A stretch of 64,000 nucleotides of DNA from Mastigocoleus testarum BC008 (GTDB lineage: Bacteria; Cyanobacteriota; Cyanobacteriia; Cyanobacteriales; Nostocaceae): assembly GCF_001456025.1 (NCBI RefSeq), contig NZ_LMTZ01000096.1:1-64000 (forward strand). The letters run 5' to 3'. Below are positions 18,495 to 62,304 of the stretch, in pieces (the stretch's first letter is position 1; each line of letters opens with the position of its first letter). The notes beneath the pieces are model-generated. The model was given only the letters and a program-made list of their open reading frames with translations, was not told where the DNA came from and ran no database searches. The translations under genes were made by a program, and so were the position numbers.

Positions 18495-18662
18495 TAGCTA
18501 ACGCCGCGCCTTTACAGGCTACAGTTAATACGCTATGTACACTTACTTACCCGCAATTCCTGCGGTACGCTGTAGCTGCGCTACCTCCAGATCCACCAGC
18601 TGCTAACGCGCACGCTGTGCTAACAGATATCAATTTTTTACTATTATTAACATTCAACCGCT

Positions 18663-18725
18663 CACTGTTAACAGTTAACTGTTCACTGTTAACTGTTAAC
18701 TGTTAGCTGTTAACTGTCAACTGTT
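18663..18725. repeat. STRR-type heptamer tandem repeat (AACTGTT, about 9 units), near-reverse-complement of the 18452 array
   Basis: cactgttaacagttaactgttcactgttaactgttaactgttagctgttaactgtcaactgtt. Abuts the cysS stop codon. Confidence 0.85.
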
Positions 18726-22231: not shown

Positions 22232-22284
22232 GTAGAGACGTAGCAGAGCCTTTGGCGTCGGCGTAGCCTCTGCTACGTCTCTAC
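22232..22284. repeat. palindromic dispersed element (GTAGAGACG...CGTCTCTAC family) flanked by the 13-bp direct repeat AGAAGTCAGAAGT
   Basis: gtagagacgtagcagagcctttggcgtcggcgtagcctctgctacgtctctac, with agaagtcagaagt on both sides. Confidence 0.7.
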
Positions 22285-46915: not shown

Positions 46916-47537
46916 TATCTACATCAAGTTAAGAGCATCTTAAATCTCTAGATGTTACTGTAATTGTTTCAGAAATAACGCAATTTTTGCTGCGTTTTAA
47001 AGAGATTTTGGGAGCATAAACAACCTTAAGACTATATATTATTCCATTCAAACACGCGCAGCTACTATGTTTATTCTGAGTTATTTACATCAGTAAACAT
47101 AATGGTTCTGCAAATTACCCCTCCGTCATCATACCAGGGATACATCTCACTACTTATAGCTAATTAAAAGCTACTTATAGCTAATTAAAAGTAAGTAAGG
47201 TATAACTAACCTTCCAGAAAGCAGGTGCAAAGAGATTCCAATTCTGGCTCCTATCTCCCAAATTCTGTTAGCAAAGCAGTGGACTACCGGGCACAATTCT
47301 GCTCTCAATTATTTAATTTTTTCATCTACATTAGTAAAAATATACTTGAATGAGAAAGTTTTTGCTCCCTATTTTCTGTTACTTATAGCAATCATATTTG
47401 ATTAGCAGATAAAGTAAAGACATTGCAGAGGTTAAGCCAAAGCTTCAGGCTCTGCAACGCCTCTACAATATTGATTTTCATGAATCTCATAAATGATTTG
47501 GAATTGCTGATTGCTATATTCCCCGTTTAAATAATAA

Positions 47538-51233: not shown

Positions 51234-52034
51234 ATGAAGTGGTTTAAAAAGCAGGAAAAACAGCAGTCGAATATATCACTAGAAGAGCAAAGAGCAGAAA
51301 GATTAACGGAGATGGGTGCCCAACTACGCACTTGTCGTGAAGAAAAAGGTTTTTCGCTGGATGAAATTGTTGCAATGACAAGGATTTCACGTCGGTTATT
51401 GCAAGCAATAGAACAAGCGAATTTAGCGGAGCTTCCAGAACCAATTTATACTCAAGGTTTGATTAGAGAATTTGCTAATGTCCTTGGTTTTAATGGAGCG
51501 GAATTTGCTAGTACTTATCCTTTAGGTTCGAGTAAAATTACGATTAATTCACCCTGGGTTGTCAGACCAATTGGACAATTAAGCTCGGTACATCTTTATC
51601 TTATTTATATTTTCTTAATTTTATTTTCTATAAGTGGTTTATCTACTTTCTTAAATACTGCATCATTAAGTGCTAATAGTAATGTAAATGATTCGCAGTT
51701 GCAATTATCTCAAAATCCAGAAAAATCTCAGATAAATTCTGAAAAAGATTCCTCTGTTGGGAATCAAAAAAATAATCAACCATCCCAAAAACAAGTACAA
51801 GTAGGAATCACTTTGAAAGAAGAATCTTGGATTCGGGTGGTAGCGGATGGCAAAGTTAAATATGAAGGTAAATTAGCGAAGGGAAGTAAACGTAATTGGA
51901 AAGCAAATAAGGAACTTACAGTTCGTGCTGGGAATGCAGGGGGAGTTTTAGTAAGTGTCAATCAAGAAATGGCGAAAACAATGGGGAGATCGGGCGCGAT
52001 TGAAGAGGTGAAAGTTGCTACTTCTAGACAGTAA
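51234..52034 (+). CDS. rodZ: RodZ-like cytoskeleton protein (HTH_25 + TM + DUF4115)
   Basis: HTH region LRTCREEKGFSLDEIVAMTRIS, a TM helix (LYLIYIFLILFSI), and a C-terminal DUF4115-like beta domain. The start is taken at the ATG preceded by AAGGAG. Confidence 0.6.
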   Translation: MKWFKKQEKQQSNISLEEQRAERLTEMGAQLRTCREEKGFSLDEIVAMTRISRRLLQAIEQANLAELPEPIYTQGLIREFANVLGFNGAEFASTYPLGSSKITINSPWVVRPIGQLSSVHLYLIYIFLILFSISGLSTFLNTASLSANSNVNDSQLQLSQNPEKSQINSEKDSSVGNQKNNQPSQKQVQVGITLKEESWIRVVADGKVKYEGKLAKGSKRNWKANKELTVRAGNAGGVLVSVNQEMAKTMGRSGAIEEVKVATSRQ

Positions 52035-52107
52035 TTAGATGATTTATTTGTAATGACGACTATAGCGGTTTCTATTTGAATCAAATACATTTTCATATTC
52101 CCACTCT

Positions 52108-52157
52108 GTAGAGACGTTGCATGTATTCTGTAGAGACGTTGCATGCAACGTCTCTAC
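52108..52157. repeat. palindromic dispersed element, one partial plus one full copy (GTAGAGACGTTGCATGCAACGTCTCTAC)
   Basis: gtagagacgttgcatg tattct gtagagacgttgcatgcaacgtctctac. The same 28-mer occurs in-frame inside the giant CDS at about 57586. Confidence 0.8.
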
Positions 52158-52213
52158 GGGATTTATCTATTTACAAATCAAATATGATTGCTACAACACC
52201 GAGCAAGACCCAC

Positions 52214-52381
52214 TGGGAGCATCTCAATTTTTAAAATTTACCGAGAATATAGCTTGTCATTGCGAATGCAGCGAAGCAGAATGAAGCAATCGCAACATCT
52301 AGAATTTGTGATTGCTGAGGACGCGCTCCGCGAACGCTTCATTTCATTACGCTCGCAATGACAAAATTTGAGATGCTCCCA
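52214..52381. mobile_element. MITE-like imperfect palindromic element of about 170 bp with 13-bp terminal inverted repeats
   Basis: TIRs are GGGAGCATCTCAA ... TTGAGATGCTCCC. Internal arms are mutually complementary (cttgtcattgcgaatgcagcgaagc ... gcttcatttcattacgctcgcaatgacaa). The CGCAATGACA motif is shared with repeats at about 4040 and 54950-55060. Confidence 0.6.
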
Positions 52382-52473
52382 GAAGCACTGGCGTATTTGT
52401 GGTAGTGAAAATTCTTTTTACAATAATTTTTACAATAAAAGCAAGTTAATAAAATTATTTATATGTATGATTT

Positions 52474-55400
52474 ATGACTGCATTTTCCTGCCACCGCCCC
52501 AAGGTTGCTCCCATTTGGGTTTTCTTGGTTACTTTTTTATTAATTATTTCTTTGTCCTTACCCTCGGTTAGCGCTCAAGAAGAAAAGCCAAAACCGCCGA
52601 AAGAATGGGAAATGAAAGGTATAGTAGCAGCGCTAAAAGACCCTTATGCAGTAGTAAGGCTGGAAGCTGCAAATAGATTAGGAACATATAAATTAGACCA
52701 TCCCAAAAACCAAATTCCCAACTATAAAGAAGTTGAGAATCTATTGCTTGAACAGTTATCACCTCCAGATAAGGAAGATAAAAAAGAAAAGAACTTTTCC
52801 CGTAGAGCTGCAGCAACAGCACTGGGGAATATAAAAGCGAAAGAATTTGCACCCCAAATTGCCCTACTCCTTAAAGATTCTGACTCGGATGTGCGTAATT
52901 CTGCAGCAACAGCACTGGGGAATATGAAAGCGAAAGAATTTGCACCCCAAATTGCCCTACTCCTTAAAGATTCTGACTCGGATGTGCGTAATTCCGCAGC
53001 AACAGCACTGGGGAATATGAAAGCGAAAGAAATTGCACCCCAAATTGCCCTACTCCTTAAAAGTTCTGAGTCTTCTGTGCGTAATTCCGCAGCAACAGCA
53101 CTGGGGAATATGAAAGCGAAAGAAATTGCACCCCAAATTGCCCTACTCCTTAAAGATTCTGACTCGGACGTGCGTAATTCCGCAGCAACAGCACTGGGGA
53201 ATATGAAAGCGAAAGAATTTGCACCCCAAATTGCCCTACTCCTTAAAGATTCTCAGTTTTATGTGCGTAATTCCGCAGCAACAGCACTGGGGGAGATGAA
53301 AGCGAAAGAATTTGCACCCCAAATTGCCCTACTTCTTAAAGATTCTAAGTCTTCTGTGCGTAATTCCGCAGCAACAGCACTGGGGGAGATGAAAGCGAAA
53401 GAAATTGCACCCCAAATTACCCTACTCCTTAAAGATTCTGAGTCTTCTGTGCGTTATTTCGCAGCAACAATACTGGGGAATATGAAAGCGAAAGAAATTG
53501 CACCCCAAATTGCCCTACTCCTTAAAAGTTCTGAGTCTTCTGTGCGTTATTCCGCAGCAAGAGCACTGGGGGAGATGAAAGCGAAAGAATTTGCACCCCA
53601 AATTGCCCTACTCCTTAAAGATTCTCAGTCTTCTGTGCGTTATTTCGCAGCAACAGCACTGGTGCAGATGAAAGCGAAAAAATTTGCACCCCAAATTGCC
53701 CTACTCCTTAAAGATTCTGAGTCTTCTGCGCGTAATTCTGCAGCAACAGCACTGGGGAATATGAAAGCGAAAGAATTTGCGCCCCAAATTGCCCTACTCC
53801 TTAAAGATTCTGAGTCTTCTGTGCGTAATTCCGCAGCAACAGCACTGGGGAATATGAAAGCGAAAGAATTTGCACCCCAAATTGCCCTACTCCTTAAAGA
53901 TTCTCAGTTTTATGTGCGTAATTCCGCAGCAACAGCACTGGTGCAGATGAAAGCGAAAGAATTTGCACCCCAAATTGCCCTACTTCTTAAAGATTCTAAG
54001 TCTTCTGTGCGTAATTCCGCAGCAACAGCACTGGGGGAGATGAAAGCGAAAGAAATTGCACCCCAAATTACCCTACTCCTTAAAGATTCTGACTCTTTTG
54101 TGCGTGATTTCGCAGCAAGAGCACTACCAAAGTTAGAAAAACAAGGTTTATCGGTCACTGTGCAAATTCTGAATGCAGTGCATTATTATCCTTCAGAAAT
54201 TAATCGATTGAGATTTTTAGCCCATTTTATCGGTGGTGGAGAGCAAGATGTAGAAACTCTAATGAAATGGATTGGTAAACCCAAAGTTAAAACTACACCA
54301 AATGATTTAACTGTTGCTCAAGGCAGGAAAATCATGAAATTATTTGAACGAAGTTGGAAACTGTGTGATTCCCTACCAGACTTACAACGGGAATTAGCAC
54401 GACAGATTGCTAGGGTTTCCAAAAAAGTTTCTTGGGAAGCATGGGACATCAATTTACTTCAACGTCACCATAAAAACCTTAAAGATGGCAGATCTCACTA
54501 TGCTGACACTGTGCATAGTGTTATTAATGATCTGGAATTTTGGAAATGGTTTTTTATTGCCAGAAATATTATCCTGATTCACCTTGCGATTTGGCTTACC
54601 CTGATTCTTCTTTACCCCAAATTTACTCCAGTTCTTGCACCTTTGTTATGGAATCCTTGGCTGAGACGAATTCTTGGTTTTGGTTATATTGGCTTACTGC
54701 TAACTTTGGTTCCCTGGTTCCGTGAAAGATTGTTACAACCATTTAAACCTTTGCTGTTAGCAGATGCACGATTAGATAATTTCGTTGAGCAAGGTTATTT
54801 TGGAGAATCTTATGTGAAGGTTCCACCGGGTAGTGTTCAAATTTTAAATTCAAGTCGGGATTTACGCAGGAATAAGAGATTTAGAGTTATTGGGAGCATG
54901 GGAAGTAATCACAGGGTCGAAATCTTAGGGGGATTGCTTTACTACGCTGGCGCTCCGTTCGCAATGACGAGTAGGTTTTTGAATCGCAAGGTCCATATGC
55001 TAAGGGGATTGCTTCACTACACTGGCGCTCCACTAGCCCGCAGCAAGCTGAACGCAATGACAGTAAATAACTATTCCCCAAAATATATTACGTCAAAAGT
55101 TCAACCAATTACTCAAGCAATCCCAAGTCTTCAAGGACAAATTGTCTTAGAAGGTGAATCTGGCTTGGGTAAATCAATGTTTCTGCGCCATTTAGCGAAT
55201 AATTCCCAGCGTATTCTTGTTTATCTCCCCGCTCAAAAGTGTGATAAAGGGGTAATCAAGGCAATTTCTGCCAAATTAAAAGAACAAGTAAATGATTTCA
55301 AGTTCCTAAAAAACCTGATTTACAATGGAGCCTTAGATATCTGCATCGACGGACTCAACGAAGTTACAGCAGACACTCGAGCAAAAATTTCCCAGTTTGC

Positions 55401-58113
55401 AGAAAGCTATTTCCGGGGCAATATAATTATGACAACCCAGCCCCTAGACTGGATACCGCCTTCCACTGCGAAGAAATACGAATTGCAGCCTTTAGAACGC
55501 GAACAGATTGAGCAATTTTTGCTGTTGCGTGGTGAGACGATTGGGGATTGGAGACTGGGGACTGGAGAAGACAAAGGAGTTAACGCATCATTTACACAAT
55601 ATGACCAAGCTTGTTCAAACTATCTTGCGGAAGCTTTCAACGAACAACAATCCCCAGAAGATTTAGCAGCAACCAAGCGAATTCTTTCTAACCCAATGGA
55701 TTTAACTTTGGTTGCCCTGATGCTATCACAAGGACAGCAACCAAATTTATTCCGCCTGCAAGAACAACAATATCAACTGATGGCGGCTGAATATCAGCGA
55801 GAATATCAGCGGGAATTTCCTTTAAAAAGGTTTTCTGAAGCTGTTTATCAAATGCGATTGTATGACGAAACCATTATACCCAGCAAGGAATTTGGTTCGG
55901 AATTAGTATGCTTGGGAAATGAAAAATATAAGATGGTTATCAGTCGTCAGTGGGAGAGTGACAAAGGGGAACCAGAGAAAACCTGGTATTTTCGCCACGA
56001 TAAAATTATGGAATTCTTCTTGGTACAAAACTTTCGCGGTGCAGATAAAGCAGTTCAAGAACGGATTCAAAAACACATTAGTGACCCTAGGTTTCGCGGC
56101 GTTTATTTATTATTAGCTAATTTACTTCCTTTAGATTATGCAGTTGAACTGCGAGAAAGAATTATCGATTATGCTGCTAACAGCAAAGACCATACATTAA
56201 GCGATAAGTTTGTTCAGTTATTACAGTTGCGCTTACCCCTAAAATGGACGCAAGGTGCAAAAGTAAAGTCATTATTACAACAACACGAACAAAAAACCCA
56301 GTATTTAGATTTAGTAGCAAAATTTTTAGAACAGGTCGATGCGACGGTCAAACGGGAGCAAAAACTATACCTGACCATTGAAAATATCGAAAGCAGTTTG
56401 AGGAATTATGCGCCTTTCCCGGTTGCGATCGCGATCGATACCCCAACAGATGAAGATATTAGTCATTTGGTAAAACTTTCCCAACAATTGAAAGCAGAAT
56501 CGACAGCAGAAACAGAAATAACAACAGAGCGATCGCCCAAAGCTGGCTTACTAATCTACAAAATTCCTCCAGATCCTGCAGCCAGAATGGAAATTGCTAA
56601 GGTGCGGTTGCGGGATAATTTTCTCTTAATTCCCATTCCCATCACATCAGTGGAAAAAGCCTTAAGCGATAAAGACAATTGTATTGGCTTGCTGGATGAG
56701 TATATTGATCGATATCTCCAACATGCTGACTTCTTTGATGATCGCAATGCCATTACTGACACATTATCATTTTTCGGTCGTACAGAAATCTTACAACGCT
56801 TAGGAGAAGAACTACTAAGACATCAAGCATTAGGGCTTTTTGGATTGCGTAAATCAGGTAAAACCTCAGTTTTGATCCAATTGGGTTTTATGTTGCGGGA
56901 ATATCCAATCATACATATTGATTTGCAAAGCTATGGCGGTTCTCGTTACGCTGTGGATTTATTTAACAAGATTATTGATGGTTTATCTAGCTTAGAAAGT
57001 GAAACTCCCTTTCCCCAATTTGCACCATTTCCTCGAGAGCAACCTGCTGCTGAGTTAACAACTGAATTTATTCAACGGGTGAATGAATATGTCAGTGTGA
57101 TCCAAAACCAAACAAAATATCACAACCAAAAGAAATATAAACTACCCATCCCGTGCTTTTTAGACGAAGTAGAAAGAATTATTCCCACACCAGAACATGA
57201 TCGCGAAAAAGCTGAAGAATTCAATGCTTTTTTTGGAGCGTTGCGAGTATTATGTCAAGAAAAGAAAATTTCATTACTGGTTGCTGACGTACATCCCGAT
57301 TGCAATCGGATTAATTCCTGGACGCAAGCAGGAGTTGCAACAAACCCAGTTTTTAGCTTCTTCAAAGAAATATTTTTACCACCTTTCTCAGAGGAAGAAA
57401 CCCAAGAGATGTTGGTAAATCTTGGTAAATTAATGGGTTTAGAGTTTGATGCAGCTACACCCCAACAAATCCATTACCAAAGTGGCGGACATCCCTTCGT
57501 TTCTCGTCAAATTGCCCGTTTTCTCACAAATAAAATTAAAGATCAATACAGTTCAGTTAAGAATTCTTTTGAAACAAATAACGCTGTAGAGACGTTGCAT
57601 GCAACGTCTCTACCAAGAAATTCAGGTTTATCTGAACCATATTTGATTAAAAATAAGCAGGACTTACCTCATCAAAACAATAACATGCTCATTGAGTGGG
57701 GAATGGTAGAAAAATATTTAAAGAAAACCTTAACCCAAAGAGGTCAGTTAAAAAATTATCTAGAAAAAAGTATTTGGGAAGATTTAGAGAAACGCAACTT
57801 TCAAGTTGCTATTGCTGTGCTGCAATGCATCGCCTGTAACGAAGATTCACATCGGAAAATAACACAAACAGCCTTATTTAACCAACTAAAAAGCCAATTT
57901 ACAACCAACCGGTTATTAAATGCTTGCAATTGGCTGATAAGTGTTGGATTGTTATATGAGGAGGAAGTTGAAGAACTAAAAGTGGAAGATTCAGAAATTC
58001 AAACCCAAGAAGCTCAAAGTAACGAACTTTACCATATCCGAATTCCTCTCTTATCAAGGTGGATCTACATGCAGATGACAGAAGAGGAAATTGAGCAATG
58101 TACGATTCCGTAG
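52474..58113 (+). CDS. giant multidomain protein: signal peptide, 14 HEAT(PBS-lyase-type) repeats, TM segments, NACHT-type STAND NTPase, second STAND-like P-loop ATPase module
   Basis: Signal-peptide-like MTAFSCHRPKVAPIWVFLVTFLLIISLSLPSVSA. 14 copies of a 31-aa repeat (AATALGNMKAKEFAPQIALLLKDSDSDVRNS). Hydrophobic helices at about aa 690-750. Walker A GESGLGKS and Walker B ICIDGLNEV (NACHT hhhDGhDE). NPMDLTLVALM and WYFRHDKIMEFFLVQ NACHT-like motifs. A second module runs FFGRTEILQRL...GLRKSGKTS...GGHPFVSRQIARFL. Confidence 0.8.
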   Translation: MTAFSCHRPKVAPIWVFLVTFLLIISLSLPSVSAQEEKPKPPKEWEMKGIVAALKDPYAVVRLEAANRLGTYKLDHPKNQIPNYKEVENLLLEQLSPPDKEDKKEKNFSRRAAATALGNIKAKEFAPQIALLLKDSDSDVRNSAATALGNMKAKEFAPQIALLLKDSDSDVRNSAATALGNMKAKEIAPQIALLLKSSESSVRNSAATALGNMKAKEIAPQIALLLKDSDSDVRNSAATALGNMKAKEFAPQIALLLKDSQFYVRNSAATALGEMKAKEFAPQIALLLKDSKSSVRNSAATALGEMKAKEIAPQITLLLKDSESSVRYFAATILGNMKAKEIAPQIALLLKSSESSVRYSAARALGEMKAKEFAPQIALLLKDSQSSVRYFAATALVQMKAKKFAPQIALLLKDSESSARNSAATALGNMKAKEFAPQIALLLKDSESSVRNSAATALGNMKAKEFAPQIALLLKDSQFYVRNSAATALVQMKAKEFAPQIALLLKDSKSSVRNSAATALGEMKAKEIAPQITLLLKDSDSFVRDFAARALPKLEKQGLSVTVQILNAVHYYPSEINRLRFLAHFIGGGEQDVETLMKWIGKPKVKTTPNDLTVAQGRKIMKLFERSWKLCDSLPDLQRELARQIARVSKKVSWEAWDINLLQRHHKNLKDGRSHYADTVHSVINDLEFWKWFFIARNIILIHLAIWLTLILLYPKFTPVLAPLLWNPWLRRILGFGYIGLLLTLVPWFRERLLQPFKPLLLADARLDNFVEQGYFGESYVKVPPGSVQILNSSRDLRRNKRFRVIGSMGSNHRVEILGGLLYYAGAPFAMTSRFLNRKVHMLRGLLHYTGAPLARSKLNAMTVNNYSPKYITSKVQPITQAIPSLQGQIVLEGESGLGKSMFLRHLANNSQRILVYLPAQKCDKGVIKAISAKLKEQVNDFKFLKNLIYNGALDICIDGLNEVTADTRAKISQFAESYFRGNIIMTTQPLDWIPPSTAKKYELQPLEREQIEQFLLLRGETIGDWRLGTGEDKGVNASFTQYDQACSNYLAEAFNEQQSPEDLAATKRILSNPMDLTLVALMLSQGQQPNLFRLQEQQYQLMAAEYQREYQREFPLKRFSEAVYQMRLYDETIIPSKEFGSELVCLGNEKYKMVISRQWESDKGEPEKTWYFRHDKIMEFFLVQNFRGADKAVQERIQKHISDPRFRGVYLLLANLLPLDYAVELRERIIDYAANSKDHTLSDKFVQLLQLRLPLKWTQGAKVKSLLQQHEQKTQYLDLVAKFLEQVDATVKREQKLYLTIENIESSLRNYAPFPVAIAIDTPTDEDISHLVKLSQQLKAESTAETEITTERSPKAGLLIYKIPPDPAARMEIAKVRLRDNFLLIPIPITSVEKALSDKDNCIGLLDEYIDRYLQHADFFDDRNAITDTLSFFGRTEILQRLGEELLRHQALGLFGLRKSGKTSVLIQLGFMLREYPIIHIDLQSYGGSRYAVDLFNKIIDGLSSLESETPFPQFAPFPREQPAAELTTEFIQRVNEYVSVIQNQTKYHNQKKYKLPIPCFLDEVERIIPTPEHDREKAEEFNAFFGALRVLCQEKKISLLVADVHPDCNRINSWTQAGVATNPVFSFFKEIFLPPFSEEETQEMLVNLGKLMGLEFDAATPQQIHYQSGGHPFVSRQIARFLTNKIKDQYSSVKNSFETNNAVETLHATSLPRNSGLSEPYLIKNKQDLPHQNNNMLIEWGMVEKYLKKTLTQRGQLKNYLEKSIWEDLEKRNFQVAIAVLQCIACNEDSHRKITQTALFNQLKSQFTTNRLLNACNWLISVGLLYEEEVEELKVEDSEIQTQEAQSNELYHIRIPLLSRWIYMQMTEEEIEQCTIP
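52810..54115 (+). repeat. 93-bp tandem repeat array (about 14 near-identical units) encoding the HEAT repeats
   Basis: Units differ at only a few nt. There is a higher-order duplication: units 5-7 resemble units 12-14, DSQFYVRNS...DSKSSVRNS...ITLLLK. Confidence 0.85.
54890..55075 (+). repeat. two tandem in-frame copies of a MITE-arm-like segment embedded in the giant CDS
   Basis: GGGATTGCTTtACTACgCTGGCGCTCCgttCGCAATGACg and GGGATTGCTTcACTACaCTGGCGCTCCa...CGCAATGACa, related to the right arm of the 52214-52381 element. Translated as GLLYYAGAPFAMTS / GLLHYTGAPLARSKLNAMT. Confidence 0.5.
57586..57613 (+). repeat. 28-nt perfect palindrome GTAGAGACGTTGCATGCAACGTCTCTAC inserted in-frame in the giant CDS (encodes VETLHATSL)
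   Basis: Exact copy of the intergenic palindrome at about 52130-52157. Confidence 0.8.
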
Positions 58114-60536
58114 GAGAACGTCCTTTTGACAATTACCGCACCCCCATAACAGAACCCTCCTACTTCTTTGGACGTAGTGAATTAATTCATACCATGCTCA
58201 AATTCCCCTTTCAGGTGCGGATACTCTTAGGTGGAAGACGTTTGGGTAAAACCAGCGCCTTACGTGCTGTCGAATGGAACTTGCTCGATCCTAATAATAA
58301 TCCCGATCGCAATCCCAATTCTAAATATTTTCGTCGTGCTTTCCCGGTATTAATCGATCTCAAGCTAGAACAACCTAAAGACTTAGATAATCTACGTTAT
58401 ATCCTGATCGCCAGACTCCGAGAAGCAATGGAACGCTGGCGAGAAATTCCTGTAACATACATTAACCAAATGTACCCCGAGTTTCTCAATCAAGTTAAGG
58501 GTGCTGAAGTTACTTTGAATTTCCTCTCAAGTTTAGGTATTAATTGTAACAGTAATAATTCCGATACCGAAAAACGGTTAAACAACGATAACTTTCGACT
58601 CGCTTTCTTAAAAACAAAAGAAGAACTACGAAAACAAAAAGAATTAAACTTTCAAGGCGTCTGCTTCCTGATTGATGGTGCTGAATTCATTGTCCGTCAA
58701 ACTTGGGCTACTGATGCTTGGTCTTATCTACGGGGTTTGAAAGATACCGACATCGCCATCAAATCAGCTTTAGGTTTGTTACTTTCCGGTTACCGAGACT
58801 TAAAAGAATATCAGCAACGCGTCGGTTCGCCATTATTGAATATAGCAGAAATTGAATGGTTAACCACATTAAGTGAAGAAGATACCAGAAAATTGGTATG
58901 TGACCGCATTTCGCACATGTTGCAGACTTATGACACCGAAAAAGAAAAAATTTTTTTGAGTGAAGACGCGATCGCACAAATTATCGAATGGTCTGGATGT
59001 CATCCCTACTTGATCCAACAATTGCTCAACATGATTTTTGACTCCAACCAGCAATTTGAGCTTGAGCAGCAATGCTTAGATACTCATCTCATCAACAAAT
59101 TATTACAGCATCACGATAAAGATTTCTCTTCCTGGTGGAACACCGAACACCTCTCTGGTTGCTTTAGTGAAGACGAACGCAAAATTTACTGTACCTTAAT
59201 CGAACAACGCCAAGCGACCCCCAAGGATTTAGCAAAAAATACAAGTTTCAGCCGATTTAAAGTATCAGAAGCATTAGAAGTAATGGCTGGTACCGGTGTA
59301 ATTCACCTACTAGATGATGAATCTTACATATTAGGTTCTCGTCTATTTCAAGAATGGGTAAAAGATTTAACTTCTAATACTTTAAGTCCTAATACATCTG
59401 AGTCAGACTCTGAAAAGCAATCGCAACAAGTTTTATTAGATAAACAATTATGTAAACAAAATCAAATTCAAAATCAAACTCAAATTAATTACCAGGATTT
59501 TCAAATCATAGTTGATAAAAATCATTATATTCGTGCTTCCTCAGAACAAGGGGAAGTTAAAAACCAATTATTATTAGATATCAATAAAATAAAACTGACA
59601 TTAAAACTAGTCGAACTCAATCAGACAGATACAGAACTGCTCAAAGCACTAGGTCACGAGCTTTACCAAGCACTCTTTCCCGATAAAATTAACGCTCGAT
59701 TCCACGCTACATTAGCAAGCGCACAAACAAAAAAAGAAAGCGTCCGCTTACGTCTAATATTTGAATCGCCCGAATTAGCTTCTCTACCTTGGGAATTCCT
59801 CTACGACGAAGATACCAACACTTTTTTAGGAAACAACACCGAAACCGTTCTTTCTCGTTATATCGATCTTCCCTTAAGAAAAAGCGATCTAAAAGCCGTT
59901 AGTTTACCTCTGAAAGTCCTATTAGTCATTTCCACCCCCACTGACTTAGCCACATTAGACGTTGCTGGAGAAGAAAAACTAATTCAAGAAGCCTTAAAAA
60001 CACACATAGAAACAAAAAACATTGAGTTAGATATCTTACAAACAGCAACGAGACGAGAAATCCAGCAAAAGCTAAATGAGAAGCATTACGATGTGTTTCA
60101 CTTTATCGGTCATGGTGAATTTGAGAATAACAAAGGTTACATCATTCTTGTAGATGAAGCAAGAAAAGCGAAATATATGGATGATGAAAACTTCGCTAAC
60201 TTCTTTTTAGGTAGTCATAATGTGGGATTAGTTATTCTAAATTCCTGTCAAGGAGCAAAAGTAGCTTCAAATCAAGCGATGAGGGGTACAGCACCAAACC
60301 TAGTGCGTCGGGGAATACCCGCAGTAATAGCAATGCAGTATTCTATTTTCGACAACACAGCAAAACTTTTTGCAGACGAATTTTATCGTACTTTAGCACT
60401 AGGTTATCCCATAGATGCAGCAATCCAGAAAACTCGGAATGCAATTTCTATGGAATGTGGACTCAATACACGGGACTTTGCAACACCAGTGCTGTACATG
60501 CGAGCCAAAGACGGAATTATTTTAAGTGGATTATGA
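58098..60536 (+). CDS. STAND-like P-loop ATPase fused to a CHAT (caspase-like) protease domain
   Basis: FFGRSELIHTML...GGRRLGKTS (Walker A), FLIDGAEF (Walker B), GCHPYLIQQL (GxP). The C-terminal CHAT carries a His/Cys dyad in FHFIGHGEF and LVILNSCQGAK. Its ATG overlaps the upstream gene by 16 nt, and GAGGAAA lies 7 nt upstream. Confidence 0.8.
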   Translation: MYDSVGERPFDNYRTPITEPSYFFGRSELIHTMLKFPFQVRILLGGRRLGKTSALRAVEWNLLDPNNNPDRNPNSKYFRRAFPVLIDLKLEQPKDLDNLRYILIARLREAMERWREIPVTYINQMYPEFLNQVKGAEVTLNFLSSLGINCNSNNSDTEKRLNNDNFRLAFLKTKEELRKQKELNFQGVCFLIDGAEFIVRQTWATDAWSYLRGLKDTDIAIKSALGLLLSGYRDLKEYQQRVGSPLLNIAEIEWLTTLSEEDTRKLVCDRISHMLQTYDTEKEKIFLSEDAIAQIIEWSGCHPYLIQQLLNMIFDSNQQFELEQQCLDTHLINKLLQHHDKDFSSWWNTEHLSGCFSEDERKIYCTLIEQRQATPKDLAKNTSFSRFKVSEALEVMAGTGVIHLLDDESYILGSRLFQEWVKDLTSNTLSPNTSESDSEKQSQQVLLDKQLCKQNQIQNQTQINYQDFQIIVDKNHYIRASSEQGEVKNQLLLDINKIKLTLKLVELNQTDTELLKALGHELYQALFPDKINARFHATLASAQTKKESVRLRLIFESPELASLPWEFLYDEDTNTFLGNNTETVLSRYIDLPLRKSDLKAVSLPLKVLLVISTPTDLATLDVAGEEKLIQEALKTHIETKNIELDILQTATRREIQQKLNEKHYDVFHFIGHGEFENNKGYIILVDEARKAKYMDDENFANFFLGSHNVGLVILNSCQGAKVASNQAMRGTAPNLVRRGIPAVIAMQYSIFDNTAKLFADEFYRTLALGYPIDAAIQKTRNAISMECGLNTRDFATPVLYMRAKDGIILSGL

Positions 60537-60549
60537 TTAAATACGGTTG

Positions 60550-60603
60550 GTAGAGACGTTGCAGAGGCTAACGCCGACGCCGCAGGCTCTGCAACGTCTC
60601 TAC
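60550..60603. repeat. palindromic dispersed element (GTAGAGACGTTGCAGAGGC...GCAGGCTCTGCAACGTCTCTAC), probable bidirectional terminator between the convergent CHAT gene and malQ
   Basis: A long-inverted-repeat variant of the 28-mer. A related partial copy lies at about 47425-47466. Confidence 0.7.
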
Positions 60604-60660
60604 ACGCCCAAAATAATCATGGTTCAACCTTAACTGAACTGTATTGGATTATGAGTCTGT

Positions 60661-60688
60661 GGAATAAACTACCCCAACTAAACTGTCT
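60661..60688. repeat. hairpin repeat CCCCAACTA-N10-TAGTTGGGG
   Basis: ccccaactaaactgtcttatagttgggg. A similar CCCCAACT...AGTTGGGG hairpin lies at about 40258-40288. Confidence 0.6.
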
Positions 60689-60713
60689 TATAGTTGGGGA
60701 CTTACAGCATTTT

Positions 60714-60798
60714 TGTTAATCACCGTTAACTGTTAACTGTTAACTGATAATTGATAACTGTTAACTGATAACTGATAACTGATAACTGTTAACTGTTA
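60714..60798. repeat. STRR-type heptamer tandem array (AACTGTT/AACTGAT, about 11 units) overlapping the malQ stop codon
   Basis: ccgttaactgttaactgttaactgataattgataactgttaactgataactgataactgataactgttaactgttaactgtt. The final units encode the last codons and the TAA stop of malQ on the minus strand. Confidence 0.8.
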
Positions 60799-62304
60799 AC
60801 TGTTCTCAGGAGCGCGTCCAAATAAAACAGTCAGATTTTTCAGGCGATCGCTCAACTCTTCATTTAAAGCCTCAGCATAATAACGCCATTCCCAATTACC
60901 TTCACCCTTAGAAGGAACATTCATGCGTGCTTGAGTAGATAAACTCAAAATATCTTGTAAAGGAATAATCGCTTGATTCGCCACAGAACTTAAAGCTAGG
61001 CGAATTAAATCCCAATGAACCCCATCAGGACTAATGCTTCCTAAATAAAGCCATAGGTTACGTTTTTCCCAATCTGAAGCTGTATTGTACCAACCAATAC
61101 TTGTGTCATTATCGTGAGTTCCCGTGTAAATCACACAATTTTGGGGCACATTGAAAGGTAAATAAGGGTTAGTCGGGTCGGAACCAAAAGCAAACTGTAA
61201 AACTTTCATTCCCGGAAACTCGAATTTATCTCTCAATGCAAGTACTTCTGGGGTAATTGTTCCTAAATCTTCTGCTAGTACTGGTAATTTACCTAACTTT
61301 TGCCGGATAGTTTCAAATAATTCATCTCCTGGTGCTTTCACCCATTCCCCATTAACTGCAGTCTCTTCACCTTGGGGTACCGACCAAAACGCCTCAAATC
61401 CCCGAAAGTGATCGATGCGAATAATATCGACATAGTCAAGCATCGCTTCAAAGCGTTTTACCCACCAATCAAAATCTTGTTCTTGTAAAGCTTCCCAATC
61501 GTAAACGGGGTTACCCCACAATTGTCCGGTTTCGCTAAAGTAATCCGGTGGTACCCCAGCCATTTGTGCGGCTTCTCCTGTCTCTTCATCCAGAGAAAAA
61601 ATATCTCGATTTGCCCAGACATCAGCGCTATCATGTGCGACATAAATGGGAATATCACCGATAATGTTCACACCCCGTTCGTTAGCATAATTTTTCAGTT
61701 CCGACCACTGACGGAAAAATTCATACTGAACAAACTTGTAGTAAAAAATACTTTCAGATAATTCTTCTTGAACTTTTTGAATCGCTTCTGTCTCATGACG
61801 AGCAATCTCTGTTTCCCAAGTATGCCAGCTGGCACCTTCATTACGATCTTTTAGTGCCATGAATAAGGCAAAATCATCTAGCCAAGAAGACTTATCGCTG
61901 CAAAAATCGGCAAATTCTTGGTTTTTTTCTGGCGAAGCATGATGCTTAAAATTATTACAGGCTTTTTGTAATAAAGGGATTTTAGTATCCACAACTAATT
62001 CATAATCTACCCTATCTCCAGGAAATGCAGGTAGATTATCAAAATCTTCTTCTGTTAATAAACCCTCATCCTTTAACTTTTCAGGGCTAATTAAAAGGGG
62101 GTTACCAGCAATGGCAGAGTAGCACATATAAGGCGAATTACCATAACCTGTCGGTCCTAAAGGTAAAATCTGCCAGTATTGTTGATTACTTTGTTGCAGA
62201 AAATCGATGAAGCGATAAGCATCTGCACCTAAGTCGCCAATACCGAAGCGACTGGGGAAACAGGTAGGGTGAAGTAAAATTCCACTGGATCTAGGAAAAG
62301 GCAT
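60796..62304 (-). CDS. malQ: 4-alpha-glucanotransferase
   Basis: MPFPRSSGILLHPTCFPSRFGIGDLG N-terminus, GH77 catalytic regions (IIGDIPIYV, RIDHFRGF, VYTGTHDND). Confidence 0.85.
   Translation of the reverse strand: MPFPRSSGILLHPTCFPSRFGIGDLGADAYRFIDFLQQSNQQYWQILPLGPTGYGNSPYMCYSAIAGNPLLISPEKLKDEGLLTEEDFDNLPAFPGDRVDYELVVDTKIPLLQKACNNFKHHASPEKNQEFADFCSDKSSWLDDFALFMALKDRNEGASWHTWETEIARHETEAIQKVQEELSESIFYYKFVQYEFFRQWSELKNYANERGVNIIGDIPIYVAHDSADVWANRDIFSLDEETGEAAQMAGVPPDYFSETGQLWGNPVYDWEALQEQDFDWWVKRFEAMLDYVDIIRIDHFRGFEAFWSVPQGEETAVNGEWVKAPGDELFETIRQKLGKLPVLAEDLGTITPEVLALRDKFEFPGMKVLQFAFGSDPTNPYLPFNVPQNCVIYTGTHDNDTSIGWYNTASDWEKRNLWLYLGSISPDGVHWDLIRLALSSVANQAIIPLQDILSLSTQARMNVPSKGEGNWEWRYYAEALNEELSDRLKNLTVLFGRAPENS

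Follow-up and report, generated by a model that had tools for sequence, protein, structure and literature searches.

A double-foot REP palindrome inserted in frame in a STAND-NTPase gene of Mastigocoleus testarum BC008, probably as the cargo of an IS4-type MITE

The first 64,000 nt of contig NZ_LMTZ01000096.1 of the cyanobacterium Mastigocoleus testarum BC008 (assembly GCF_001456025.1), this whole stretch being called the window below, contain a perfect 28-nt palindrome, GTAGAGACGTTGCATGCAACGTCTCTAC, at positions 57586-57613, within an open reading frame (ORF) for a 1879-aa protein with a STAND NTPase module (52474-58113). The closest systems described are the repetitive extragenic palindromes (REPs) that accompany the transposases TnpA_REP, or REP-associated tyrosine transposases (RAYTs). 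For TnpA_REP subclass 2.4 (Bertels group 4), the part of Quentin et al. (2018; PMC6006769) that concerns it gives the motifs NH[IFV]H, WQ and YIxNNP, a range that covers Cyanobacteria, Bacteroidetes and various other phyla, and REPs of the 'canonical long' or 'double foot' type (5' GT[AG]G, 3' C[TC]AC). According to the same description, this subclass alone has REPs inside tnpA_REP itself, in frame and located between HuH and Tyr (PMC6006769). As far as the relevant part of PMC8266576 reports, only enzymes of RAYT groups 2 and 3 have been assayed for binding and cleaving their REP hairpins as single strands. In the section of Di Nocera et al. (2013; PMC3733652) on such repeats, GTAG- and CGTC-tagged REPs that encode 10-30 aa are reported in frame in many genes, notably those of DNA repair, and 'GTAG-15 dimers' of A. 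variabilis are placed inside palindromes of the form TATAGGAnTnnnATTTGATT...AATCAAAT...TCCTATA (PMC3733652).

The palindrome of the window, taken together with its copies in other genomes, shares with the double-foot REPs of PMC6006769 the GTAG and CTAC feet on one long hairpin, the taxonomic range, an in-frame location between the HuH and Tyr motifs and the motifs of the RAYTs themselves, a likeness drawn to the description in the part of that source on subclass 2.4 and not to a listed sequence. In contrast, the copy studied here lies in an IS4-type MITE (a miniature transposable element with inverted repeats) within a STAND-NTPase gene, and the window that surrounds it has no RAYT gene. Two palindromic carriers in the window (47384-47518 and ~52060-52194) fit the A. 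variabilis palindrome consensus of PMC3733652, and the REP of the window is probably GTAG-15; however, the section of that paper on these repeats reports no IS4-type carrier with a 10-bp duplication. The Rickettsia palindromic elements (RPE), as presented in the same section of PMC3733652, are also selfish palindromic DNA tolerated in frame in proteins. Unlike them, the repeat of the window has an unrelated sequence, host lineage and presumed mobilising enzymes.

A further group is formed by the SDR hairpin repeats of Nostoc and Anabaena (21-27 nt, eight consensus sequences) that were reportedly described by Elhai et al. in 2008. These are said to be often nested, to occur in heptamer repeats or minitransposons, to be thought mobile and to be confined to the Nostocaceae. 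Nested, heptamer and minitransposon contexts are all seen in the window, a likeness by description alone, whereas the palindrome motif studied here is found in many phyla. The Nezha MITEs, in the part of Zhou et al. (2008) that characterises them, are small, hairpin-forming elements with AT-rich targets, terminal and direct repeats and ends that match an insertion sequence in Nostoc. Compared with these ISNpu3-related elements of 130-170 bp, the MITEs of the window are shorter (101-108 nt), and their family, with the terminal repeat CAATACAGTTCAGTTAAG, is set beside Nezha by description. The REPIN family of N. punctiforme in Table S2 of Bertels and Rainey (2011) was also considered and rejected, as the sequence given for it in that table differs (GTTGGGTTTCGTTCCTCAACCCAAC).

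The explanation that we favour, and hold to be very likely, is that a double-foot REP of subclass 2.4 (RAYT group 4) entered the gene as the cargo of an IS4-type MITE, which was inserted in frame at a variable linker of the STAND-NTPase and duplicated 10 bp of its target. When the protein was aligned with its homologues, a segment of 37 residues (YSSVKNSFETNNAVETLHATSLPRNSGLSEPYLIKNK, 111 nt), which includes the VETLHATSL encoded by the palindrome, was missing from all 15 of the 15 aligned homologues, with 49-84% identity over the region. The nine codons of the palindrome are therefore not conserved at the protein level. At the DNA level, alignment with the closest orthologue (L120) and with a second one (L122) gave a clean 111-nt gap with both sides aligned, and the empty site is visible in both. 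The window reads ...AATAA, AATTAAAGAT, CAATACAG...CCATATTT, GATTAAAAAT, AAGCAG..., where L120 has a lone GATTAAAGAT. Therefore, the insertion consists of a 101-nt element plus a 10-bp target-site duplication, and the inserted unit is 111 nt and not 27-28 nt, the palindrome being its core only.

These alignments establish the insertion, its borders and the target duplication. The element itself, a MITE of the IS4-derived CAATACAGTTCAGTTAAG...CTGAACCGTATTG family, occupies 57544-57644 on the plus strand, with the REP at its centre. Its ends are a left terminal inverted repeat at 57544-57561 (plus strand, CAATACAGTTCAGTTAAG) and a right one at 57628-57644 (plus strand, TTATCTGAACCATATTT); the two repeats are imperfect, AATACAGTTCAGTTAA and TTATCTGAACCATATT, and the repeats shared with the IS4-family element were placed at 57545-57560 and 57628-57643. 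The left and right copies of the 10-bp duplication, defined by the L120 alignment, are located at 57534-57543 (AATTAAAGAT) and 57645-57654 (GATTAAAAAT).

The effect of the added segment on the protein was assessed by modelling its last 480 aa in AlphaFold2 from 40 aligned sequences (mean pLDDT 83, pTM 0.81). The insertion corresponds approximately to residues 293-329 of the model. Its start extends the preceding helix with falling confidence and the remainder forms a loop, and the only internal stretch with a pLDDT below 50, residues 309-335, coincides with its distal part, whereas both flanking modules score above 85. Homologues vary in length at the insertion point, and the predicted model supports that this linker insertion may be tolerated by the protein. 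The alternative that VETLHATSL is a conserved functional peptide, and the palindrome incidental, has in its favour the open frame and nothing else. Its absence from 15 of 15 homologues already refutes conservation, the same nucleotides are read in another frame (RDVACNVST) in other host genes, and the model gives the peptide low confidence, so this alternative has practically no probability.

As RNA, the whole insertion forms a single extended hairpin whose tip is the palindrome (-32 kcal/mol, z = -5.65). Such a structure, together with the influence of REPs on mRNA stability reported in the corresponding part of PMC8266576, would suit a selected cis-regulatory mRNA element, acting through translation attenuation, as an RNase III site or as a stability element. 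However, the insertion was missing from every homologue examined (15/15) and is therefore not a conserved regulatory feature of the gene family. Similar REP modules are found at unrelated places, and no T-tract follows the coding copy. A selected regulatory role is thus unlikely, and under the MITE insertion that we favour any effect on the mRNA would be incidental and the added peptide neutral or tolerated.

The palindrome of 57586-57613 has an exact twin at 52130-52157, and no third copy of GTAGAGACGTTGCATGCAACGTCTCTAC was found in the 64,000-nt window when up to three mismatches were allowed. Matches to it appeared in 0 of 100 dinucleotide-preserving shuffles. As the distance between 52474 and 57586 is divisible by three, the coding copy yields V-E-T-L-H-A-T-S-L as codons 1705-1713 of the ORF. 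As DNA, the 28-mer gives a hairpin with a stem of 12 bp and a loop of 4 nt (-11.3 kcal/mol, z = -6.55), within the 20-50 nt of the stem-loops called REPs. Every copy in the window has the GTAG...CTAC ends that define a double-foot REP (5' GT[AG]G, 3' C[TC]AC), and the same sequence is found in RAYT genes of other phyla. The identity of the two copies (28/28), the intergenic position of the upstream one and the in-frame reading of the coding one all agreed with the original prediction. The latter had regarded the coding copy as an in-frame member of a dispersed palindromic family, and this part of its reading held, although it had overlooked both the 111-nt MITE insertion and the identity of the repeat as a GTAG-type REP linked to RAYTs.

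The original prediction had also proposed the two copies as recombination partners. They could serve in a switch that inverts or deletes DNA in a programmed way, since they are identical over 28 of 28 nt and, being palindromic, could pair in either orientation. Nevertheless, such an event would delete or invert the greater part of the ORF and destroy the gene, and a Pfam scan of the immediate neighbours (a RodZ-like gene upstream; CHAT and MalQ genes downstream) found no recombinase gene. In addition, an identity of 28 bp is close to the shortest that RecA can recombine. The identity of the copies is explained by family membership, because the same 28-mer is found across phyla, and we consider such a switch highly improbable.

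A second copy of the MITE was detected in the window through its left repeat, AATACAGTTCAGTTAAG, which recurs at 60629-60645 on the minus strand. This copy is 108 nt long (60537-60644, minus strand), carries a long 54-nt REP (60550-60603) and has the 10-bp duplication TGGATTATGA on both sides without a mismatch, at 60527-60536 and 60645-60654. It is located directly behind the TGA stop of the CHAT gene, and the stop codon lies within the left TGGATTATGA copy. Both elements (101 and 108 nt) are small, non-coding and multi-copy, as MITEs are.

To follow the family outside the window, metagenomes were scanned for AATACAGTTCAGTTAAG, which returned at least 120 loci, and the figures given here for the family refer to these 120. 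Most of them look like cyanobacterial MITEs with the structure CAATACAGTTCAGTTAAG...CTTAACTGAACCGTATTG, with complete measured elements of 57-376 bp. The right-hand repeat was present nearby in 56 loci, and 54 elements could be scored for target duplication: the two copies agreed at all 10 bases in 28 elements and at nine of 10 in another 10, so that 38 of the 54 reached at least nine of 10. The window element at 57544-57644 could be aligned over its full length with the metagenomic copies L135, L194, L237 and L127. In L126, the same ends delimit an element of 1488 bp whose product is a 403-aa IS4-family DDE transposase, which matched NCBIfam NF033592 with 200.9 bits (cut-off 115) and the Pfam families Nterm_IS4 and DDE_Tnp_1. 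Membership of the window element in this MITE family, and the link of the family to an IS4 transposase, are thereby established.

The central GTAGAGACG...CGTCTCTAC module was found in 11 of the 120 loci. In an alignment of 12 sequences (the two window copies and 10 of these 11), the foot was nearly invariant, with changes in L148 and L202 only, and the upper stem covaried (GTTGCA/TGCAAC, GCGACA/TGTCGC, GCGAAA/TTTCGC and GTAGCA/TGCTAC). In seven further loci (L131, L142, L151, L180, L184, L186 and L220), the MITE shell contained a different GTAG-footed hairpin, GTAGGTTGGG...CCCAACCTAC. This hairpin (GTAGGTTGGG...CCCAAC) matches the REP beside Npun_F5543, a RAYT of N. punctiforme, in the part of Bertels and Rainey (2011) that treats this gene. 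Therefore, the MITE family seems to acquire different REPs.

From these data, the REP would have arrived not alone but carried at the centre of a non-autonomous transposon of 101 nt. An IS4-type DDE transposase would paste the MITE into the AT-rich 10-bp target GATTAAAGAT, duplicating the target, and the insertion would lengthen a variable linker in the C-terminal STAND module by 111 nt, or 37 codons. Two of the three forward frames across the insertion contain stops, and the single open one is that in use; therefore, this copy survived as an in-frame addition.

The distribution of the REP was followed by scanning GTDB representative genomes for its two 14-nt arms, 0-30 nt apart, and at least 119 stretches were found, so that the family is not restricted to the copies of the window. 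The matched taxa were Cyanobacteria, Chloroflexi, Bacteroidota, Patescibacteria, Chlorobiota, Ignavibacteria, Gemmatimonadota, Actinobacteriota, Desulfuromonas and Gammaproteobacteria, the Bacteroidota matches including the isolates Runella, Flavobacterium, Adhaeribacter and Taibaiella. Among the matches listed, the centre of the palindrome had no or one extra base, and about one third of the sites lay within larger imperfect palindromes. The flanks of the bare copies were unrelated except for a 5' T (63%) and a 3' A (61%). The dinucleotide CT, the cleavage site of the E. coli TnpA_REP, preceded GTAG in 12% of cases, with no preference over TT or AT, and T was enriched.

As the motif is identical in many metagenome-assembled genomes, an adaptor or assembly artefact was suspected, and was excluded by its presence in isolates, by diverged and degenerate copies and by in-frame copies in conserved genes. 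Identities as attC, dif or a CRISPR repeat were dropped, as they do not fit the motif. Rfam, searched over 51900-61000 with E<=1, had no matching family, a full-text literature search with the palindrome sequence returned unrelated papers only, and one with the encoded peptides returned no papers. In IMG/VR, only three viral contigs had the REP (L123, L124 and L125), one of them with two copies within 6.2 kb.

When all ORFs of the listed loci were clustered against each other, one family dominated, present at 10 of the 119 loci and in at least seven phyla, and in 10 of 10 cases the palindrome lay within its ORF. This family of ~190 aa has the motifs VMPNHVHGI, RSYKS, WQ.RF.DH.IR and YI.NNP. 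It matched Pfam Y1_Tnp (IS200-like) and, with E ~1e-17 but below the model's equivalog cut-off, the NCBIfam 'REP-associated tyrosine transposase' (REP_Tyr_transpos). For a wider search the linker was cut from the query, which avoids a bias from the REP-encoded peptide, and 1898 homologues were obtained at E<=1e-10, many of them called RayT by JGI. Among the best 120 of the 1898, the linker between the HuH and Tyr motifs read VETL.CNVST in 37, RDVACNVST in nine and VETLHATSL in three (49 in total). Some RAYT linkers contained tandem half-copies, and that of P0122 consisted of five VETLRPQN units. These data establish the link between the REP and the RAYTs.

The same 28-29-mer was also found in frame in other genes: in Mfd of Tannerella (L073), in a PurD-PurM fusion of Anaerolineae (L080), in PFOR (L117) and in a TPR-CHAT protein of Coleofasciculus (L022). 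In Haliscomenobacter, two neighbouring paralogous histidine kinases (L093, 2129-2156 and 4600-4627) have the REP at the same HATPase_c position with different adjacent residues. In the PurD-PurM fusion (L080, 4117-4145), VETLQCNVST stands at the position of a native PurD segment, with a net length only ~1-2 residues greater than in solved PurD structures, and this REP seems to have replaced PurD sequence rather than being a simple addition.

These copies bear on the possibility that the REP entered the coding sequence directly and by itself, moved by a RAYT acting on single-stranded DNA, as seems to be the case for bare 28-29-nt copies within genes of other phyla. Bare copies of 28-29 nt with unrelated flanks are indeed found in frame in the Mfd, PurD-PurM, PFOR and histidine-kinase genes, and a target duplication, looked for around the bare 28-29-mers in other genomes, was found in none. 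To our knowledge, the Y1 HUH enzymes (IS200/IS605 and TnpA_REP families) make no target duplications. At the locus studied, in contrast, the DNA gained amounts to 111 nt, has terminal repeats of the IS4 type and comes with a 10-bp duplication, so direct entry of the REP alone is very unlikely here. Insertion as part of the MITE is therefore preferred for this copy, and its core REP would be recognised by a RAYT elsewhere in the genome.

Several observations weigh against insertion as MITE cargo. The two copies of the target duplication at the coding site agree at 8 of 10 bases and not at 10 of 10. The 64-kb window has neither a RAYT gene nor an IS4 transposase gene, and the presence of the cognate enzymes in this genome is therefore assumed. 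The closest RAYTs from Calothrix, Richelia and Rivularia-type genomes, among the best 120 of the 1898, are without an internal REP. Both orders of events fit the data, a REP entering an existing MITE or a MITE family that always carried the REP.

In the 64 kb of the window, the REP is present as two exact, three long and two divergent copies, and other genomes have several copies on separate contigs. The additional members that had been predicted near 22232, 47425 and 60550 were all real. The three long members have in common the outer arms GTAGAGACGT(T/A)GCA...TGC(A/T)ACGTCTCTAC, with an inner hairpin of 25-26 nt. Apart from the one at 60550-60603 in the second MITE, they are a variant at 22232-22284 embedded in AGAAGTC heptamer repeats and a degenerate one at 47414-47466 in the palindromic carrier 47384-47518 (TATAGCAATCA...TGATTGCTATA). 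Divergent relatives are located at 99-126 and 823-850, with ATAGAGACGTACTAATGTACGTCTCTAA and one degenerate copy; they show that this genome has a wider TAGAGACG...CGTCTCTA superfamily.

The identical intergenic REP (52130-52157) lies 317 nt 5' of the ATG of the ORF at 52474-58113, within the larger palindromic carrier at ~52060-52194, whose ends are TATAGC...AATCAAATATGATTGCTA. It is preceded by a half copy at 52108-52123 that originated in a 22-nt tandem duplication on the plus strand (52105-52126), with TCTGTAGAGACGTTGCATG at both 52105 and 52127. Tandem duplications of this kind, made of the left arm and a few bases, were seen repeatedly (52105-52145 of the window, L006, L024, L082, L115 and the RAYT P0122), which suggests that slippage or processing at the hairpin recurs. 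The intergenic REP and its flanks (52125-52162) resemble an intrinsic terminator on the plus strand, with a 17-bp stem and the tail TTATCTATTT, ~90 nt past the RodZ-like gene, although the signal is weak (one site versus 0.7 expected). The window also has GTTAACT-type heptamer tandem arrays at 60725-60804 and 18647-18725, typical of heterocystous cyanobacteria, and HIP1 sites; read together, these arrays and sites suggest a cyanobacterium of the Nostocales type.

The host gene (52474-58113, plus strand) encodes 1879 aa with HEAT repeats, a predicted membrane segment, a NACHT-like ATPase and a second STAND NTPase module; in Pfam, the protein matched HEAT repeats, AAA_22/NACHT-like families and an nSTAND1/nSTAND6 module. 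Its closest homologues are from Rivularia, Rhizonema, Scytonema and a TARA marine sample. A CHAT-protease gene (58098-60536) follows directly downstream and overlaps the ORF, and we take this STAND-NTPase/CHAT gene pair to be a conflict-type system. The HEAT region at 52810-54125 is a tandem array in which a 93-nt unit is repeated 14.2 times with 92% identity, which suggests a recent expansion or homogenisation.

Each component of this locus is of a kind already published, and only the stacking of a REP in a MITE and the constancy of the foot across phyla are mildly new. The insertion is a fully delimited case of selfish DNA that adds a peptide to a large bacterial protein, with the empty site, the duplication and the transposase family known, and two mobile systems are stacked in it, a RAYT-type REP within an IS4-type MITE. 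Annotators should take VETLHATSL, RDVACNVST and VETL[HQ]CNVST in proteins as REP read-through and not as motifs.

More tentatively, and with slightly less than even probability, REP modules with the invariant GTAGAGACG/CGTCTCTAC foot may be interchangeable cargo at the centres of IS4-type MITEs, a two-level parasitism built on a nearly pan-bacterial REP. If so, the foot of the REP would have stayed essentially unchanged across more than 10 phyla because it is carried inside its own RAYT gene, and a REP normally tied to a single-copy RAYT would gain a second route of spread through a DDE transposase, coding regions included. The constancy of the foot across phyla, together with the REPs in housekeeping genes (mfd, purD and PFOR), may merit a systematic survey.

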